Sequence record: KY435490
Direction: 5' to 3' (one strand)
DNA: 44,246 nucleotides
Origin: Escherichia phage K1E
Shown: positions 1 to 44,246 of the stretch, piece by piece
Numbering within the stretch: the first letter of the stretch is position 1
Layout of the letters: every line of letters begins with the position of its first letter
The notes under the pieces: generated by a model
The model's database searches: none
Seen by the model: the letters and a program-made list of their open reading frames with translations, nothing else
Told to the model about the DNA's origin: nothing
Position numbers and translations under genes: made by a program

Positions 1-1651
1 ATACACGATTGTCATTTGCAATCTGCATCTTATAGCAGTATATATCAGTAGGGTGTCCATGACCTTTAAATGGGTCTTTATCTTTGTTGTCACCATAAGT
101 CATTGGGTTGAAATGGTTTTCACCACCAAAGATATAGTAAATGTAGCTGTCTTTAACTACAACAGAACCTACACCTACACTAGAGTTCACAATGTCACCT
201 TGATAGATTTGGTCTGTGATGTTAACCCATTCAATATCATCTGCATTCCAATTGTTTACATTCAATCGTGCATAGAAGGTACGAGGATAAGCTGCCTTGT
301 AACGATCATCTGGTGCACCTGCTTCCCATTCATTTTCTGCACGTTCTGAACCAAACATAATAAGGTCATCTCCTACTTTAGCAAAAGGTAAGGTAGTATG
401 ATGCACATTATGTGGAAATCTTAGTGACTCCCAAGTCTGACCTATATCTCTACTACGATGCAGAGAGCTTCCTAGTCGGTCGCCACGAGTACCACGAGTG
501 ATAAGGTATAATACACCGTCATAGTACTTGATGCATGGCTCTGCCGCATCTGGTTCATACTCAGCTGGTATCTGACGACGAACATAATTAGATGGGCTAT
601 TGAAAGCATCAGGGAAGTAGAAAAGACCAACTTCTCGGGGAGCTACATCACCTTGATGATAGCCCATAACAAAGCCATTGTTATCAATAGTAGCAAAGCT
701 ATGAACTTCAGTAACACGAGGTATCAGGCCAAGATCTGTCTTACGCCATGGAGACTTATGGAAGGAAGTACCCATGTGCCAATTCTTTCCAGCATTGTTC
801 AAATCAGAGGTCTGCTGATTGGCTGTAAGAACCGTGAAGTTGTCCTTATCTATAACTGTTGCAACTTTCATATCACCAGTTACACCTGTTACCGCAGAAT
901 TAGAGAAGCTAACAAAATCGCCCACGAATAATCCGTGATCAGGTACATGGATTGTTGCATAACGCTGATTTGCAGCCTTAGTGATACCACCAGTAAGATG
1001 CAGACTACGAGACATAGGGCGATCCCACAATGCACAATTGGTTAGTGCGTTCTTGGCTAAAGTACGTGTTTCAATCATGGCAAACAGACGGTTGCGACAT
1101 ACACCCATACTCATACAATGATAGTTCACTGTAGGGTAATCTGGATGCAGATCAGTTAACCACTCTGGTGTAGACCATGTTTGACCATCGTCACCAGACT
1201 TAATCCATGATACATGCAGACGACTAACACCATGACGGTCACTACCCATGTAAGGTGCATATATCACGTTCTCATATACAAACGCTTTGTCTTGAGGCCA
1301 AGCATTGTAATAAGGGTTATCCGTGATTTTATAGAGTTCACCATTGATAAAACCTTTACTCACATAGTAAAGAGGTTGACCTGCTAAACGTTCCCATACG
1401 AAGCGGGTATTATAGAATCGCTCCATATCAGGTAAAGATGATACTTTGTAAGTAGCACCAGCACCGTCAATTCTCTTACCTGAAGCCATCGCTGCATTTA
1501 CTGCATCTTGGTCGTTTGTCTTACCATCACCTTTGGCTCCAAAGTCTTTAAGCGATACAACCTCGGTGAGCTTGTCATCCAAGTTACGCCAGATTGCACC
1601 TGCTATTTTACTCTTGAATTTAACTAATGAAGAACCTAGTCTTTGAATCAT
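1..1651 (-). CDS. Endosialidase (endo-N-acetylneuraminidase) tailspike, N-terminal part; the CDS runs off the window start and continues at 43230..44014
   Basis: ATG at 1649-1651 preceded by GGAGG; translation MIQRLGSSLVKFKSKIAGAIWRNLDDKLTEVVSLKDFGAKGDGKTND... recognised from memory as K1E/K1F-type endosialidase; frame is continuous across the duplicated ends with ORF 43230..44204 (811 codons in total). Confidence 0.88.
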   Translation of the reverse strand, partial: MIQRLGSSLVKFKSKIAGAIWRNLDDKLTEVVSLKDFGAKGDGKTNDQDAVNAAMASGKRIDGAGATYKVSSLPDMERFYNTRFVWERLAGQPLYYVSKGFINGELYKITDNPYYNAWPQDKAFVYENVIYAPYMGSDRHGVSRLHVSWIKSGDDGQTWSTPEWLTDLHPDYPTVNYHCMSMGVCRNRLFAMIETRTLAKNALTNCALWDRPMSRSLHLTGGITKAANQRYATIHVPDHGLFVGDFVSFSNSAVTGVTGDMKVATVIDKDNFTVLTANQQTSDLNNAGKNWHMGTSFHKSPWRKTDLGLIPRVTEVHSFATIDNNGFVMGYHQGDVAPREVGLFYFPDAFNSPSNYVRRQIPAEYEPDAAEPCIKYYDGVLYLITRGTRGDRLGSSLHRSRDIGQTWESLRFPHNVHHTTLPFAKVGDDLIMFGSERAENEWEAGAPDDRYKAAYPRTFYARLNVNNWNADDIEWVNITDQIYQGDIVNSSVGVGSVVVKDSYIYYIFGGENHFNPMTYGDNKDKDPFKGHGHPTDIYCYKMQIANDNRV

Positions 1652-20040: not shown

Positions 20041-21589
20041 TACGCCTCCTTAAGTTCTTGTTGAATTACACCCGGCACGGCCTTAGCCACACCTTCTTCA
20101 AGCATCTGTGCTTGCTGTGCTTGCATCTGTGCTTCCTGTTCTTGTTCCATCTCTTCAGCCGATTTAAGGAACGGCAGTTCAGCAGAGATTTGACCACGCA
20201 CCCAATCCATATAGTCAGGCCATTTCACAGCAGCTAGGACAGGCTCAGGCCATTGTAATGGCAGTGACATATACTGAGCAAAGTTAGCCAGTTTATCCAA
20301 CTCAGCCATGCGTCCTAAAGCTTCAATACCTGTGATAATCACAGGGTCCACTAAGTCACTAGTGAAGGACTCCCCTGCCTCCAGCAGACCCCACATCGCT
20401 ACTGGCGATTGCATAGTAGTAGCAAAGAGGGAGTATACACCACCCATGTTCTGCTCAATCTCTAACGCATCTCGCTGGATTTCTACAGCAGTAACACGTT
20501 CGGCGTCACGGCGTGTCATTGTCTCCATCATGAAGACAACACCGATACGGCGAGTGTATACCTCTAGAACCGCGCTAATAGGTGTGAGGTCTGCGTACTT
20601 ACCTAACTGTACAATATGGATGTCTTCTTCTACACCAGTGACAACCTCACCAGTGCCAGAGTTAACAAAGTGGTCAACATCAGTTTGAGCACCCGGACGA
20701 ATCAGGTACTTGATATCTGCCATCAGCGCAGCACCACGGGCAACCGCTTCAGATAAGAATTGGATAACGAATAAATCACCGGAGTAATCCTCTGCTAAAG
20801 GACGACCCCAATCCTCACCATAGCTTCGCTTCCAAGTTAGCGGGATAAATGGTAGCTTTTCTGATTTGATTTTACTTACCTTACCAACAGGGATATCATC
20901 AGCAGATTGCTTGAGTTCCCAAAAACCCTCACCAAGATACTTAGCATGTGTGTACAGCTTAATGCTGTCATCTTCCTTGCATTTCTTACCTTTCAGGCCA
21001 ACCTCTACTACAGCACGTGTAGCTGGGTCAAAGGTGCGTAAGGCTTTCTCTTGCAGTAAGATAATGTCTAACAGGTCGCCATTGGTATCACGGTTAACTA
21101 CATAGTGATGCATTGGGATAGCACTGATTGCACCTTTGCTCGGCTTGTATAGCATACAGCTACCAGCAACAATAAGATGCTTGAATGCTTCCACTACAGC
21201 AGGCCGGAATTGACGTTGCTCTAACTCTTTCATTGCCCGTGTTTCCACTTGAGCGAAGATGGTAGCTAGCTCTGTCTTCTTCAGGCCACGCTGATTAAGA
21301 ACCTTCTCACCTTGTGCAGTTAAGTCTACACGGAAGAAGGAACGCTGTGCAGGGAATAGTACTTGCGCTAGCTTGTTGGCTAGATGATTAGTTGCCTGAG
21401 CACCTACACCTTGCCATCCATCTGCGAAGTCTCGTTATCACCTTTGTCATTCATCAGATAGGGCAAGGTTAATTTGGAGTAATGCTTCGCCCTATCAAGG
21501 AAAGAGCTACGTTTAGTGGAGAACTTCTCCCATAGCTTAGGTATCTTAGACCGCTTACCTCCATACTCCAAATCTGTGCTCTGTTTCAT
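20040..21589 (-). CDS. Portal protein (gp8-like), with an apparent 1-nt frameshift between about 21407 and 21434
   Basis: ORF 21404..21589 aligns to the T7 portal N-terminus; ORF 20040..21248 (frame open up to 21434) aligns to the rest (...DGWQGVGAQATNHLANKL...); total 1550 nt, not a multiple of 3. Confidence 0.85.
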
Positions 21590-21590
21590 A

Positions 21591-21800
21591 TTACACCTTC
21601 AAGCTAGAAGCTACCGGACGGACAAGGCCGCGCTTACCTTTTGCAGATGCAGTCGCATCATCACCACCTGCACCAATTTGAATATCTTCAGCTTCAGTCT
21701 CAGGCTTACGCTCAAGCTGCTGTGCTGGGACTTTGGCTTCAATACGTGGTGCATCTTGAGCAAGACCGATAGCCTTAAATGCTTTCTTTACAACACCCAT
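21591..21800 (-). CDS. Small protein upstream of the portal (T7 gp6.7/7.3 position)
   Basis: 69 aa; position only. Confidence 0.45.
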   Translation of the reverse strand: MGVVKKAFKAIGLAQDAPRIEAKVPAQQLERKPETEAEDIQIGAGGDDATASAKGKRGLVRPVASSLKV

Positions 21801-22450: not shown

Positions 22451-22616
22451 CCTTCTCTTGGATAGCTTCTACAGAAAGACCAAGCTCTTCTGCATCAGCC
22501 AGTAAAGTATACGGCAATTCCATGCCACAGGATAAAGTTTCAAAGATAGCTTCTGCTACCTCAACTGCACGAGTTGCCTTCATGCTATCAAAAGAAATCT
22601 GGTTCATCTTTGTCAT
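22401..22616 (-). CDS. Hypothetical acidic protein (71 aa)
   Basis: ORF following the ligase; acidic C-terminus. Confidence 0.4.
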   Translation of the reverse strand: MTKMNQISFDSMKATRAVEVAEAIFETLSCGMELPYTLLADAEELGLSVEAIQEKVEELYGTDEEETDDFI

Positions 22617-23535
22617 GTCTTAATTCTCCCGCTTTGGGCAGACGAATGTTGCCCTTGCTTGAATCCTGAAGACCTTTTACTTCAAAGATTTTACCAATGA
22701 CATTCAATCGTCCACCATGTTTAATATCGTGGAACATCTGTTCTGCATCTGCATGAGTCCACCCTTTACCTAACATAGCTTTGATTGTCTTGCCTCCTTT
22801 CCATTTGAAAATGAGGTTAGCTACCTTACCTTTGTACTTACCTTTGCCTTCTTCAAAGCCAATACAAGTAAGGTCATAAGTTACCTTACGGACTTCTTTA
22901 GTCTGACGATAACCTTTGTGGCCTGCTTCATAATCACAGTCCAGTTTAAACACAGCACCCTCTCGGCCTGCGTCTATTTGCTCTTGCGCAAACGCTTCAA
23001 CTTCTCGCTCATTATGGCAAGGAGTAATAGGAAGGATAGCGTTGTACCCGCTAAGATGAGCGCCGATGCGACGATGTAAAGCATAGTAACGTTTGAGATA
23101 AGAAACATCAGTGAATCCATCATGGAATGCCTTAATAGTTAACATATCGAAGAAGTCAATATACAGGTTGTCTTTAATCTGCTGGCCTATGAAATCCAGT
23201 GGCTCAGTGCGGTTAGGGTTAACTACTCCAGAAAGTGCTTCAAGGTAGACATCAATAGCCATAGATTGCAACTCACCGAGATAAATGCCAGTAGGGAAAG
23301 CTGAATAAGATTCTTCCAAGGTTTCCGTGTTAGCCAGTTTCTTTCCAGTGCGTCCAAAGATACCAACGACACCATCGTTGCGAACAACCACAGCACTAAA
23401 TATACCATCTCGTTTTACCTGTGCATAACATGGAAAAGTTAATTTCTTCTCAGGTACTTCACCGCGATGTTTCACCAGCATGAATGGGTGATTGCGGTGG
23501 TCTTCTGGAAGACCTAGGAATTGGAATATATTCAT
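22588..23535 (-). CDS. ATP-dependent DNA ligase
   Basis: KRDG (motif I), EGAVFK (motif IV), LIFKWKG (motif V). Confidence 0.85.
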   Translation of the reverse strand: MNIFQFLGLPEDHRNHPFMLVKHRGEVPEKKLTFPCYAQVKRDGIFSAVVVRNDGVVGIFGRTGKKLANTETLEESYSAFPTGIYLGELQSMAIDVYLEALSGVVNPNRTEPLDFIGQQIKDNLYIDFFDMLTIKAFHDGFTDVSYLKRYYALHRRIGAHLSGYNAILPITPCHNEREVEAFAQEQIDAGREGAVFKLDCDYEAGHKGYRQTKEVRKVTYDLTCIGFEEGKGKYKGKVANLIFKWKGGKTIKAMLGKGWTHADAEQMFHDIKHGGRLNVIGKIFEVKGLQDSSKGNIRLPKAGELRHDKDEPDFF

Positions 23536-23649: not shown

Positions 23650-24120
23650 TTAAATATCCTCATCAATACATTCGTGACGATGCTTCTGGAATAGCTCTTT
23701 GTAGTAGTCTGCTTTCTTCAGATCTTCTTCCGTGTTGAATTTCTTCCCTGCACGCAGACGATACTTCAAAGCATTACCCATGCAATATCCAGCAAATTGC
23801 TTCTCGGTCATACTACGAGCAATGATAGTGATTGCCTCTACCCCATCGAAGAACTCATAGTGCTTAGGCTTAGTAACCATATTGTTGTCCAACGTGCTAG
23901 GATCTTCATCTTGCAATGAGTCAACAACCTTGAAGTAAGGTGCATACCATTCGCGCTTCTCAACACCTTCTAACATAATAGAGTTATAATTAGGTTCTGC
24001 ACGGGATACTTTGAATACCCCATCTGGTTTCTTGCCTAGGCTTTCACACAGTTTATTCCAGATGGCATCTCGGTAAGCTGCACGGCGTACGACGTATTCG
24101 CCAATATAAATCTTTGACAT
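23650..24120 (-). CDS. Hypothetical protein (156 aa)
   Basis: ATG at 24120 after GGAGG; promoter upstream at 24177..24194. Confidence 0.55.
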   Translation of the reverse strand: MSKIYIGEYVVRRAAYRDAIWNKLCESLGKKPDGVFKVSRAEPNYNSIMLEGVEKREWYAPYFKVVDSLQDEDPSTLDNNMVTKPKHYEFFDGVEAITIIARSMTEKQFAGYCMGNALKYRLRAGKKFNTEEDLKKADYYKELFQKHRHECIDEDI

Positions 24121-24176
24121 AATTAATTCCTCCATTCACTATACAATCAAGGGTAAGCTAATACCTACCCTTTGTT

Positions 24177-24194
24177 CTATAGTGTCAACTAAAT
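24177..24194 (-). promoter_or_regulatory. Phage RNAP promoter (ATTTAGTTGACACTATAG)
   Basis: Consensus variant, 57 nt upstream of the start at 24120. Confidence 0.6.
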
Positions 24195-25195
24195 CTTACC
24201 AATCCAGCGATTGTCACTATTGGTCTGCATCGGGACAATGTGCGGCACACCCTCCAGAATAACCACACAACCTAATGCTGGCTTGTATTTGGACTCACGA
24301 CCATAGGCAAATGCACGAGATGACTCATCAATCAAACAGCCGCCCTGCACAGCCCAATACTGTTCATGTGTATTACGTGCGTACTCCACAGACATCTTAC
24401 CATGCAAGTGACCACACACAAGGTTCATACGCTCATGCGCTGCATCTGCTAAGACAGAGCCAGCAGGTTGATGCTTGAATGCTACCTGTTCACCATTCGG
24501 CAACTCAAGTACGTGTGTATGTTGCCAATCCCACTGGTCGCCACCTCCATTTGGGAAGAAGACTTCACGGTATGTACGAAGATATTGCACTGGAATACCC
24601 TTGGCGCTTGCCTTACGGAAGTGCATAGAGCGTGATTAGAATGACACAGGCGCATCACAGGAAACATCTTGTGCAACTTGTGCATGAAGACACGAGCCTT
24701 CTCTAATTCCATGCCAGCACTGTCCAGATTTGGGTCCGAATCGTGGAACGATAAGGCATGTTTGTCTGCCTCATCTCCAAGATGAACCACCGTATCAGGA
24801 CGGTAACGTGCTGCCACTGCTGCAAGGAACTCTAAGGTATCTGGGTGCTCATACGGTGCATGGGTATCAGGGATTACCAGTACACTTCGATGAGGCGAGT
24901 CAGGCAATGGTACAATAGCCAAATCCTCGTAGCGGTCAGGAGTCCTGAGCTTACGCTCTTCCTTGATACGCTTATCCTCTTGCAGAAGGGTCTGGTAGTA
25001 ATCACCATTCTTCTTGGTCTTCTTGAATTGACCATGCCAGTATCGAGCCAACTGGCGGGTAATCTTCTTACCCACAGGGTGACACGATAATACCCGTGCC
25101 ATCTCGTTGTAGTTGACATTACCTTTCTCGTCGGTAGCTTGCTCGATTGCATCAAGTACCTCGGAGTCTTTGTACAAGCTGCGAAGCTTACCCAA
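24189..25195 (-). CDS. Calcineurin-like metallophosphoesterase (Ser/Thr phosphatase-like), with an apparent 1-nt frameshift near 24620..24650
   Basis: Upstream frame has DTH, GDEAD and SNH motifs; downstream frame (ORF 24189..24626) has GHLHG; probable TTG start at 25195 after AGGAGG. Confidence 0.6.
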
Positions 25196-25601
25196 CTTTA
25201 ACCTCCTTCTTCTTTCTTGCATAAGCAAGGCGTGCCTTACGGTTCTTAGCCTCGCGCTTCTCTGCCTCCGTTTGATGTTTATGATAAATCTTATCAGTCT
25301 GAGGCTTACTATGTAACTTCCAGTATTCATACAATCTCTCTAACCATTGAAGCTGGAAGTAACGGTTATTACCCGCCTTGCCATAACCAGAGATAACACC
25401 CTTAATCTTCCCTTCCGCACCATTGCAACCTCGGCATACAACAGCACGGCAGAATCCTGTCTCATGGTCATGGTCAAGTACACGGTTTACAGGTGTGACA
25501 GCTTTGAGACTGCCACCACACAGAGGGCATTTCCATCCTTGCTTATCTAGCAATTCCTTCTTATAAGCTGCCACCTCCGATGCTTTTAATTTGCTAACCA
25601 T
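25188..25601 (-). CDS. Endonuclease VII-like Holliday junction resolvase
   Basis: ...CPLCGGSL...VLDHDHETGFCRAVVCRGCNGAEG... resembles T4 endonuclease VII. Confidence 0.8.
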   Translation of the reverse strand: MVSKLKASEVAAYKKELLDKQGWKCPLCGGSLKAVTPVNRVLDHDHETGFCRAVVCRGCNGAEGKIKGVISGYGKAGNNRYFQLQWLERLYEYWKLHSKPQTDKIYHKHQTEAEKREAKNRKARLAYARKKKEVKVG

Positions 25602-26623
25602 TCCGCATCATCTCCCCACAAGATTGGGTTCTTATCGGCTCGCCATATATCACCTTTGAACCTAGCCATGTGAGCTAAGCGACCGCATTCAAGCATAAGG
25701 TCAAAGGCTTTGCCCACCCGATAACCACCTCGGTAATTCTTAATCTTAACCTGTCCATGACCGAACTTATCTTTGTAAGCACCAAGCACTGCCATGTACA
25801 ATTCTTTCTCTGTCTTACAACCTTTGAGAAGATCATAGGCATATTTAGCACCACGACCAGGTATGCCAGCATAGTTATCAATATCATCACCGATAATCAT
25901 CTGTGCATAATGGAACATAAGGCCAGCACCTTTTAGGTCTTTGACTTGACCATTAGCTTTGCGGCGTAACTCAAGCCAGCCCATAGGCTCTACCCACTTC
26001 TTCTCTTGACCCGGCTGTAGATGCCAACCGGGAACAATCATCAAATCCTTATCCAAGGAAACGATGCAAGTATCAGAGAATGCTTTATGCTCTGGACTGC
26101 CGATAGGGAACTCGTTACCTGTATCTTGCTGGAAGCGGCGGTGGCTGTCCCATTGTGCGATGCTCATGAGGTCATCAGCTTCCTCACCATCTGCCAAGAT
26201 TGCACCGTGAACCTCTAAGAGATGCTCTCGCAATTCATAGAAGAACGGAGGCTTCTCGGTCTTACGTTGACCCTTATAAGGCTTTGTGAATGCTAGGCGG
26301 ACACGGAAGTTAGCTTCTGATTTCGTCATGAATAGCTTAGCTGCATCACACTCTGCTGCATACACCCAAGAGTTAAGCAAGGAGTTCACACGGTCACATG
26401 CTTGCTTACACTCAGGTGTATCTTTGATTGATGGGACTTGTCCTGACTTAACACGAGTTGTGGCTCGTAAATAAGTCATGTCACTGATTGTATAACCTAC
26501 GATGTAGGGTAACATATCAGCATCTATTAAAGCGATTCGATTACCTTCAGTCGGCCACAGGATGAGATTATTGTCTTCCGATACTGTAGCTCCGAAGTCG
26601 AAGTTTGGTCGCATGTAGGCCAC
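25586..26623 (-). CDS. 5'-3' exonuclease (T7 gp6-like)
   Basis: 345 aa; IALIDADML and KPYKGQR motifs. Confidence 0.8.
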   Translation of the reverse strand: MAYMRPNFDFGATVSEDNNLILWPTEGNRIALIDADMLPYIVGYTISDMTYLRATTRVKSGQVPSIKDTPECKQACDRVNSLLNSWVYAAECDAAKLFMTKSEANFRVRLAFTKPYKGQRKTEKPPFFYELREHLLEVHGAILADGEEADDLMSIAQWDSHRRFQQDTGNEFPIGSPEHKAFSDTCIVSLDKDLMIVPGWHLQPGQEKKWVEPMGWLELRRKANGQVKDLKGAGLMFHYAQMIIGDDIDNYAGIPGRGAKYAYDLLKGCKTEKELYMAVLGAYKDKFGHGQVKIKNYRGGYRVGKAFDLMLECGRLAHMARFKGDIWRADKNPILWGDDAEWLAN

Positions 26624-32679: not shown

Positions 32680-32889
32680 TTAAATATTCACGTAGGTTTC
32701 TTCAGTAACAATAGGGAGATACAGTAATTCTTCACCATTCAAGAGGTGAAGACCTTTCAACCCTTGCTTACGGATAATACCTTCTATAGTGTCGGCAAAA
32801 TGCTTATTAGCTACACGTCGTGGTGTACCGTGTTCTGTGATTGCATGGTCAACATCCATGATTCGCACAGGTACATTTGGGTGCATCAT
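32680..32889 (-). CDS. Hypothetical protein (69 aa)
   Basis: ORF only. Confidence 0.4.
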   Translation of the reverse strand: MMHPNVPVRIMDVDHAITEHGTPRRVANKHFADTIEGIIRKQGLKGLHLLNGEELLYLPIVTEETYVNI

Positions 32890-33368
32890 GCTTCACCAAT
32901 CTTCACCATAGCTTGTCCTGTGGATTTACCAAGAGCACGAGTGTTAAACTGCGTAACACCTAGTGCAGTGCCACATTGCTTAATCATTTCACTTTGAGTC
33001 TTACCAGTGATTACATTGCGGCGATCTTTATTAAGTGTAGTTTTACCTTTGCCATATGCCTCTGCTAAGGTTTGAATGCCAGCACCATAGCGAAGAGGGT
33101 ATAATAGCATTTTATGCATCTGGCGGGCACACTTATCGCAAATCTCATCGTGTACGCACTTACATTGATTGCTTACCTCTCCAATCTTCTCAAGGTAGTT
33201 ATGTGCTGATTCCTTTTGATAAGCCTGTCTAATACCATTACTGTACTCTACATAGTAGCTGTTTTCACTTACATTAGTCACAGTACCACGGCAACGATAT
33301 CTACGTGAGGTTGCATTGATGTTACGAACATAATCACCTGCATTCAATACTAATTTATACATAATCAA
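32886..33368 (-). CDS. Hypothetical Cys-rich (zinc-binding?) protein (160 aa)
   Basis: CKCVHDEICDKCARQMHK cluster. Confidence 0.55.
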   Translation of the reverse strand: MIMYKLVLNAGDYVRNINATSRRYRCRGTVTNVSENSYYVEYSNGIRQAYQKESAHNYLEKIGEVSNQCKCVHDEICDKCARQMHKMLLYPLRYGAGIQTLAEAYGKGKTTLNKDRRNVITGKTQSEMIKQCGTALGVTQFNTRALGKSTGQAMVKIGEA

Positions 33369-35786: not shown

Positions 35787-35941
35787 AACCTAGGTCTGCC
35801 CTTCCTCTAAGTGGTAATAAGAGGAAGGAAGAAGGTAATAGGTATTCCTAGGTATTCCTAGATAACCTATATAACCTTTAATACCTATTACTTCCTTTAT
35901 ATCCTTTATCTTCCCTTTCTTTCCCGTCTCCGACGGCTATC

Positions 35942-43252: not shown

Positions 43253-44246
43253 ACATCTCCTCTAATTTATCAAGACGATGGCGAGTATAGGCAGCCTCTA
43301 GGATTAGAACTTCACTATATCTCACACCGTACCTACCTTCTTCGAAGGACACAATTCCATACTTAATGGCATCTAACCCTTCATCTTCAAAAGCAGCTAC
43401 AATATCCTGAGCCAAGACACCGAAGTGTATGCTATCAAGGTTCCTCTCTGCTTCACTATTCAAACCATACTGTTTAAAACCAACCCTGCTCCAAGCCTTT
43501 AACACCTTGGTATTAATACTAGAGATACCGTACTTGTGGTCAGCATCTGAAGTTGTAACAGGGTCACTGCCTAGGTAGATGGTAGTGAATCGGTTACTAG
43601 GCCCCCCAGCAGCAAACTGGTTATCTACAGCAGGCATGATTGGTGCACCTTGGAATAGGTGCTCATTTCCGTTATAAGTGATACGCTTAGCCTTACTTGA
43701 ATTAGAGCCGTGCAAAGTTATCTGTGCACCTGAAGAGGACGAAGTCTTTTCTCCACCACAAATAATCAAACGTTGACCAGTTGGGTTGTCCTTTGGAACA
43801 GACTTACCAATAAAGCCATATTCACCTTCCATCTGCACTTCAGATCGTATATTGGAACTTGTGCTTGCTTTAAGTGTTAAGTGTCCAACTTTAGTATCCT
43901 CTGTAACAATGTTATCTGAGAAATACAAAGGTGCAGAGATATTTCGTATTCCATCAGTACCCATGAAAGTAGGTATAGCTTGACCCGGAGTTGCACCATA
44001 TGTAAACTTACGAGATACACGATTGTCATTTGCAATCTGCATCTTATAGCAGTATATATCAGTAGGGTGTCCATGACCTTTAAATGGGTCTTTATCTTTG
44101 TTGTCACCATAAGTCATTGGGTTGAAATGGTTTTCACCACCAAAGATATAGTAAATGTAGCTGTCTTTAACTACAACAGAACCTACACCTACACTAGAGT
44201 TCACAATGTCACCTTGATAGATTTGGTCTGTGATGTTAACCCATTC
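43230..44246 (-). CDS. Endosialidase tailspike, C-terminal part (same gene as 1..1651; 44015..44246 duplicates 1..232)
   Basis: Track ORF 43230..44204 is open up to the window end; frame matches the N-terminal segment after removing the 232-bp duplication. Confidence 0.88.
   Translation of the reverse strand, partial: EWVNITDQIYQGDIVNSSVGVGSVVVKDSYIYYIFGGENHFNPMTYGDNKDKDPFKGHGHPTDIYCYKMQIANDNRVSRKFTYGATPGQAIPTFMGTDGIRNISAPLYFSDNIVTEDTKVGHLTLKASTSSNIRSEVQMEGEYGFIGKSVPKDNPTGQRLIICGGEKTSSSSGAQITLHGSNSSKAKRITYNGNEHLFQGAPIMPAVDNQFAAGGPSNRFTTIYLGSDPVTTSDADHKYGISSINTKVLKAWSRVGFKQYGLNSEAERNLDSIHFGVLAQDIVAAFEDEGLDAIKYGIVSFEEGRYGVRYSEVLILEAAYTRHRLDKLEEMYATNKIS

Follow-up and report, generated by a model that had tools for sequence, protein, structure and literature searches.

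In members of the metallophosphoesterase superfamily, residues from motifs I–III and residues from motifs IV–V together bind two metal ions. In the SP6-like Autographiviridae, the conserved family PHROG 221 is exemplified by the "metallo-phosphoesterase" encoded by K1E gp22 and K1-5 gene 22, which lies between the genes for endonuclease VII and a DUF3310 protein. Isolated one-base deletions that recur in a particular sequence context, have no matching insertions, and hit essential genes among others are a pattern often produced by long-read sequencing or by other methods whose consensus is prone to indels, and classic homopolymer errors favor long runs.

Here, we analyze the whole sequence of record KY435490 (44,246 nt, herein referred to as the window; coordinates follow plus-strand numbering), which is of the K1E/K1-5-like coliphage type (Vectrevirus, SP6-like Autographiviridae) and carries its genes on the minus strand. 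A phosphoesterase gene orthologous to K1E gp22 occupies the same position between endonuclease VII and DUF3310 in this sequence; whereas K1E gp22 is a single ORF of 335 codons, the window instead presents two ORFs of 237 and 145 codons. The pattern of one-base deletions across the genome leads us to regard this split as very probably an error of consensus sequencing or assembly, a technical origin that we infer from that pattern.

Genome Context and Gene Neighborhood

A megablast search with positions 24100–25300 of the window returned 95 phage records, and the K1E/K1-5 group of Escherichia phages supplies the best of these (91–99.8% identity). Over a 1.2-kb query comprising the gene and its flanks, DNA identity is 96.7% to K1E and reaches 99.8% to SHAK7163. 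The order of genes on the minus strand is exonuclease, endonuclease VII, phosphoesterase, DUF3310 "nucleotide kinase", a small ORF, and DNA ligase (table 1), which places the phosphoesterase gene in a block devoted to DNA metabolism (exonuclease, endonuclease VII, DUF3310 "nucleotide kinase", and ligase).

Positions 1..232 of the window are exactly repeated at 44015..44246, and both copies of this 232-nt repeat fall within the tailspike gene, indicating that the window is an untrimmed circular assembly whose ends are not the physical ends of the genome. The physical terminal repeat of the phage, which is found at the genome ends in Mt1B1_P10, differs from this 232-nt overlap. A 10-nt tandem duplication (GGTATTCCTA ×2) is also present at approximately 35842..35861, in the intergenic spacer that separates the primase/helicase gene from the RNA polymerase gene, and is not found in SHAK7163, Mt1B1_P10, Phi100-A, or Logan contig L024.

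Table 1. Coordinates of the phosphoesterase locus, its neighbors, and the private one-base deletions of the window.
Feature	Position	Strand	Extent or base	Remarks
Exonuclease gene	26623..25586	minus		
Endonuclease VII gene	25601..25188	minus		
Shine–Dalgarno AAGGAGG	25208..25202	minus		6 nt upstream of TTG start; read from sequence
Metallophosphoesterase gene	25195..24189	minus	1007 nt (1008 in relatives)	ortholog of K1E gp22 (PHROG 221)
N-terminal ORF as written	25195..24482	minus	237 codons	188 native residues + 49-residue out-of-frame tail
Motif I, D110-T-H112	24868..24860	minus		D110 and H112 invariant in 18 and 27 homologs
Motif II, G140-D-E-A-D144	24778..24764	minus		G140, D141, E142, and D144 invariant
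Motif III, S186-N187-H188	24640..24632	minus		frame breaks right after H188
Missing-base site	24631/24632	minus-strand gene		plus strand GAGC^GTG vs. GAGCCGTG in relatives
C-terminal ORF as written	24626..24189	minus	145 aa, M191..I335	motif IV H242 and motif V GHLHG
Motif V, G262-H-L-H-G266	24413..24399	minus		shifted frame; G262 and H265 invariant
DUF3310 "nucleotide kinase" gene	24135..23650	minus		
DNA ligase gene	23535..22588	minus		
ORFs of split hypothetical protein	33368..32886 and 32889..32680	minus	160 and 69 aa	joined by ATGA overlap
Deletion	21421		T	9/9 relatives disagree; portal gene
Deletion	24631		C	10/10 relatives disagree; phosphoesterase gene
Deletion	32299		C	2/2 relatives disagree; alters tail of 68-aa ORF; TGCCTTG/CAAGGCA
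Deletion	32890		G (GG to G)	3/6 under strict filter, 6/6 in looser comparisons; hypothetical protein gene
Deletion	40545		C	6/6 relatives disagree; intergenic; TGCCTTG/CAAGGCA
Deletion	40686		A	3/3 relatives disagree; splits 58-aa early ORF
Deletion	41091		G	3/3 under strict filter, a fourth (L013) in looser comparison; intergenic; TGCCTTG/CAAGGCA

A Single Missing Base Divides the Phosphoesterase Gene

The phosphoesterase gene begins at a TTG codon (25195..25193) that is preceded by a Shine–Dalgarno sequence (table 1), and its start region includes the stop codon of the endonuclease VII gene. The same TTG start is annotated in K1E, KAW1A4500, and LL11, the last of which also has a ribosome-binding site annotated there. 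In relatives, the coding strand reads CAC GGC TCT (H188–G189–S190), which becomes CAC GCT CT in the window; the missing base is a C after plus-strand position 24631, equivalent to the second G of the coding-strand CAC-GGC. An alignment of 162 columns with SHAK7163, Mt1B1_P10, and K1E contains a single gap column and no further indel, in agreement with a preliminary description of this DNA in which one missing base was held to split the gene. That description placed the break within 24600–24660, which holds, and more closely at about 24645, which is some 14 nt from the actual site. Its assignment of the DTH, GDEAD, and SNH motifs to one frame and of GHLHG to the −1 frame is borne out by translation of both frames.

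The native residues of the N-terminal ORF comprise the N-terminal helical region and motifs I–III, after which translation in the wrong frame continues to a stop at 24482. The C-terminal ORF lies in the −1 frame, which is open from a TAA onward, and ends at 24189; its ATG (M191) sits 5 nt past the frame break, and a reading of the sequence upstream of this codon found no Shine–Dalgarno sequence. By tblastn, the C-terminal part is identical to relatives at 146/146 positions. Restoration of the missing base yields a product of 335 aa whose gene differs from that of Logan contig L016 by one synonymous change only, such that there is no sign of gene decay, although the lack of decay discriminates little at such low divergence.

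The Intact Gene Is Conserved among Relatives

The extra base at 24631, together with an intact ORF of 335 aa, is present in all 10 relatives that align across the site (five GenBank genomes and five independent Logan assemblies from different runs), and a further, shorter Logan contig over the site (L020, L021) also has the extra base. Wherever genes of a relative were annotated or called, the encoded protein is intact at 335–344 aa. The gene is annotated at 1008 nt in K1E, LL11, and KAW1A4500. Among Logan contigs chosen for an identical endonuclease VII, which derive from eight independent assemblies, the 335-aa gene is called and the extra base is present in every contig that covers the whole gene (6/6). 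L016 shares 99.76% identity with the window over 8414 nt; 18 substitutions, nine of them synonymous, separate the two sequences, and the sole two indels are the gaps in the portal and phosphoesterase genes.

A 70-nt query centered on the site is identical to none of 129 GenBank phage records, and in the best five of these the gap is the only difference from the window. Exact-pattern scans did not find the gapped variant in IMG/VR or in JGI metagenome contigs; the intact variant is present in IMG/VR. When searched against a large protein collection, the restored protein has 2804 matches at E ≤ 1e-10, and 119 of the best 120 are contiguous proteins of 329–348 aa with 99–100% query coverage. Two separate proteins conserved in relatives, the outcome that the preliminary description set against its own reading of the gene, are thus not what the best homologs reveal. 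Exact-protein look-ups with the 237-aa N-terminal product and with the ligase gave no match. Full-length homologs with 47–87% identity occur in phages of Escherichia, Klebsiella, Proteus, Aeromonas, Vibrio, Marinomonas, and Pseudomonas, a breadth of conservation that is understated by the earlier term "accessory gene".

One contig (L015) was considered as a second carrier of the lesion and rejected. It matches the 145-aa ORF exactly; however, the contig merely starts at the ATG, where its end lies, and it represents a different phage, with 94.6% DNA identity over its part of the gene and lower identity elsewhere.

Several of the related records have irregularities of their own. Phi100-A (L012, PQ476009.1, flagged UNVERIFIED) carries the extra base at 24631 and, besides this, its own net one-base length difference in the same gene, opposite window positions 24549..24582, which suggests that indel problems are common in recently deposited genomes of the group. 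SHAK7163 (L001/L004, OR594179.1) and SHAK7704 (L010, OR594181.1) are labeled as Kayfunavirus (Studiervirinae) and "vB_EcoM" despite being ~97–99% identical to the Vectrevirus-type genome of the window. The annotation of SHAK7704 is offset, such that "tail protein" features cover the phosphoesterase region, and the SHAK7163 record has no endonuclease VII CDS and a phosphoesterase CDS lengthened to 380 aa.

Motifs, Predicted Fold, and Function

The five residues S186–N187–H188–G189–S190 are invariant in both homolog alignments (18 and 27 sequences), and the frame break therefore coincides with the block of strongest conservation in the protein. The preliminary description anticipated correctly that one added base restores a contiguous protein; the restored motif is nevertheless SNHG, with Gly, and not SNHD, with Asp. 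Motif III is accordingly a variant SNHG rather than GNH(D/E), in which neither the metal-binding Asn nor the catalytic His varies. Motif IV H242 and G262–H263–L–H265 are conserved among homologs and are encoded only in the shifted frame of the window; H263 is invariant in one homolog alignment (A2) and conserved at 90% or more in the other (A3). All five motifs lie in one uninterrupted frame in every relative examined, but not in the window.

Against Pfam PF00149, the restored protein scores 21.6 bits, a marginal pass of the 21.5-bit cut-off, whereas its match to phrog_221 is full length (E 3.4e-105). A PDB sequence search with the restored protein returned no match. Structure prediction, which was performed on a homolog with 87% identity (P0001) and the 27-sequence alignment, supports a calcineurin-like fold. 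The intact protein would comprise an N-terminal helical region (~residues 1–80) and, C-terminal to it, a domain of calcineurin fold whose two-metal center would draw its ligands jointly from motifs I–III (D110/H112, GDEAD, and SNH) and motifs IV–V (H242 and GHLH). The predicted activity is most likely phosphoester hydrolysis in a presumed nucleotide or nucleic-acid substrate.

Private One-Base Deletions across the Genome

The whole window was compared with five complete GenBank relatives and with long Logan loci. We retained one-base indels only where they stood alone amid clean alignment, and an indel was considered private when every covering relative disagrees with the window; many first-pass indels relative to SHAK7163 and Mt1B1_P10 were dropped because they resolved into pairs of compensating gaps where the sequences are diverged. 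Seven private one-base deletions remain (table 1), three of which (32299, 40686, and 41091) are at sites covered by just 2–4 relatives, and the whole-window comparison found no private insertions with equal support.

All seven deletions reduce a two-base run to a single base (P ~3e-4 for random deletions). TGCCTTG, on one strand or the other, accounts for three of the seven sites; the simulated chance that three of seven share any such 7-mer is ~1e-4, with the motif having been noticed post hoc. Twelve copies of TGCCTTG/CAAGGCA are still intact in the window, indicating that this 7-mer is not miscalled at every occurrence and is error-prone at most. Five of the seven deletions break ORFs that relatives have whole, the other two being intergenic, and the halves that flank each break retain 90–100% protein identity to relatives. 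The share of deletions that fall in coding sequence is close to the chance expectation for a densely coding genome; coding sequence is thus not spared, and the deletions have not been filtered by selection. A search for nonsense substitutions found none in real genes, as all matches are on antisense or upstream pseudo-ORFs.

The portal gene (~20043..21598, minus strand) was described earlier as having the same problem, and this is indeed the case: one T is absent after 21421 (CCAT^CTGCG vs. CCATTCTGCG in relatives), which switches the frame at residue 59/60 of the 516-aa head–tail connector protein, and the parts on either side of the break are 99–100% identical to relatives. Such a deletion would abolish an essential virion protein. 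The deletion at 32890 splits a hypothetical protein of 227–240 aa in relatives into fragments of 160 and 69 aa.

Origin of the Split

Of the two origins that the preliminary description left side by side, systematic sequencing error and real pseudogenization, the former is favored because there are seven private deletions and zero insertions, because the deletions are confined to two-base runs, because coding sequence is hit, the portal gene included, and because a 7-mer is shared among several sites. We propose that the base is absent from the record rather than from the phage: the consensus would carry context-dependent one-base deletion errors, one of which removed a C from the CC pair at 24631/24632 and so split the 335-aa gene on paper, and the phage itself would have a contiguous gene. 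The frameshift most likely has no biological basis.

It is improbable that the deletion is instead real, in the form of a recent loss-of-function frameshift that left a mutant or defective phage, or the majority genotype of a stock or metagenome population, with a young pseudogene. The gap is present in the sequence as given, replication slippage does yield single-base deletions in short runs, and the gene may be dispensable in the laboratory, our literature search having found no functional study of K1E gp22 or its SP6 homolog. However, the same genome would then also carry the portal frameshift at residue 59 and three more broken ORFs, a combination that a propagating phage could not carry. 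The excess of deletions over insertions and their shared sequence context also argue against a real lesion, as do the confinement of the allele to this record when set beside the 129 phage records, IMG/VR, JGI, and the Logan relatives, and the lack of secondary decay or other degenerative change in the gene. The narrower proposition that the single-C allele belongs to a viable K1E-like phage that has lost a deeply conserved phosphoesterase is more doubtful still, as it requires either that the portal and other lesions are errors while this one is real, or that they are tolerated; if true, the gene would be dispensable under the sampled conditions. All that a real lesion would show is that loss of a conserved gene of the early or middle class is possible.

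We attach hardly any probability to a functional split, whether it were to operate through programmed −1 ribosomal frameshifting, transcriptional slippage, or a two-subunit enzyme. There is neither a slippery X XXY YYZ heptamer nor a homopolymer at the break (CAT TCT AAT CAC GCT CTA TGC), and the arrangement in two frames is found in no relative. A −1 shift leads from the first frame to the second, whose ORF starts with ATG (M191), as such a mechanism might lead one to expect; that ATG is nonetheless devoid of a Shine–Dalgarno sequence. Moreover, the break parts the metal ligands of motifs I–III from those of motifs IV–V within a single fold, and since the metals are held jointly by both sets, each fragment would have only one half of the active site. 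Both programmed recoding and a split enzyme are effectively excluded.

An error in the record, our preferred reading, has practical consequences for quality control. The record has at least seven one-base gaps that break five ORFs, and an automated pipeline would annotate the phosphoesterase as split and the portal as truncated, along with further small proteins that are spurious; fixing the seven sites would return an ordinary K1E-like gene set. The closest GenBank relatives themselves include records flagged UNVERIFIED.

Comparison with Known Systems

The deletions of the window resemble the indel-type consensus errors of phage assemblies in being isolated, in recurring in a particular context, in lacking matching insertions, and in striking essential genes, and the untrimmed circular-assembly ends are a further point of likeness. 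They differ from the classic form of such errors in that the affected runs are only two bases, not long homopolymers. The phosphoesterase itself is unremarkable within the known phage family to which it belongs. Relative to the PF00149 superfamily (the MJ0936/YfcE/PolD DP1 branch), its sequence similarity is marginal and SNHG replaces GNH(D/E); unlike that branch, the family to which the window gene belongs has an extra helical N-terminal region of ~100 residues.
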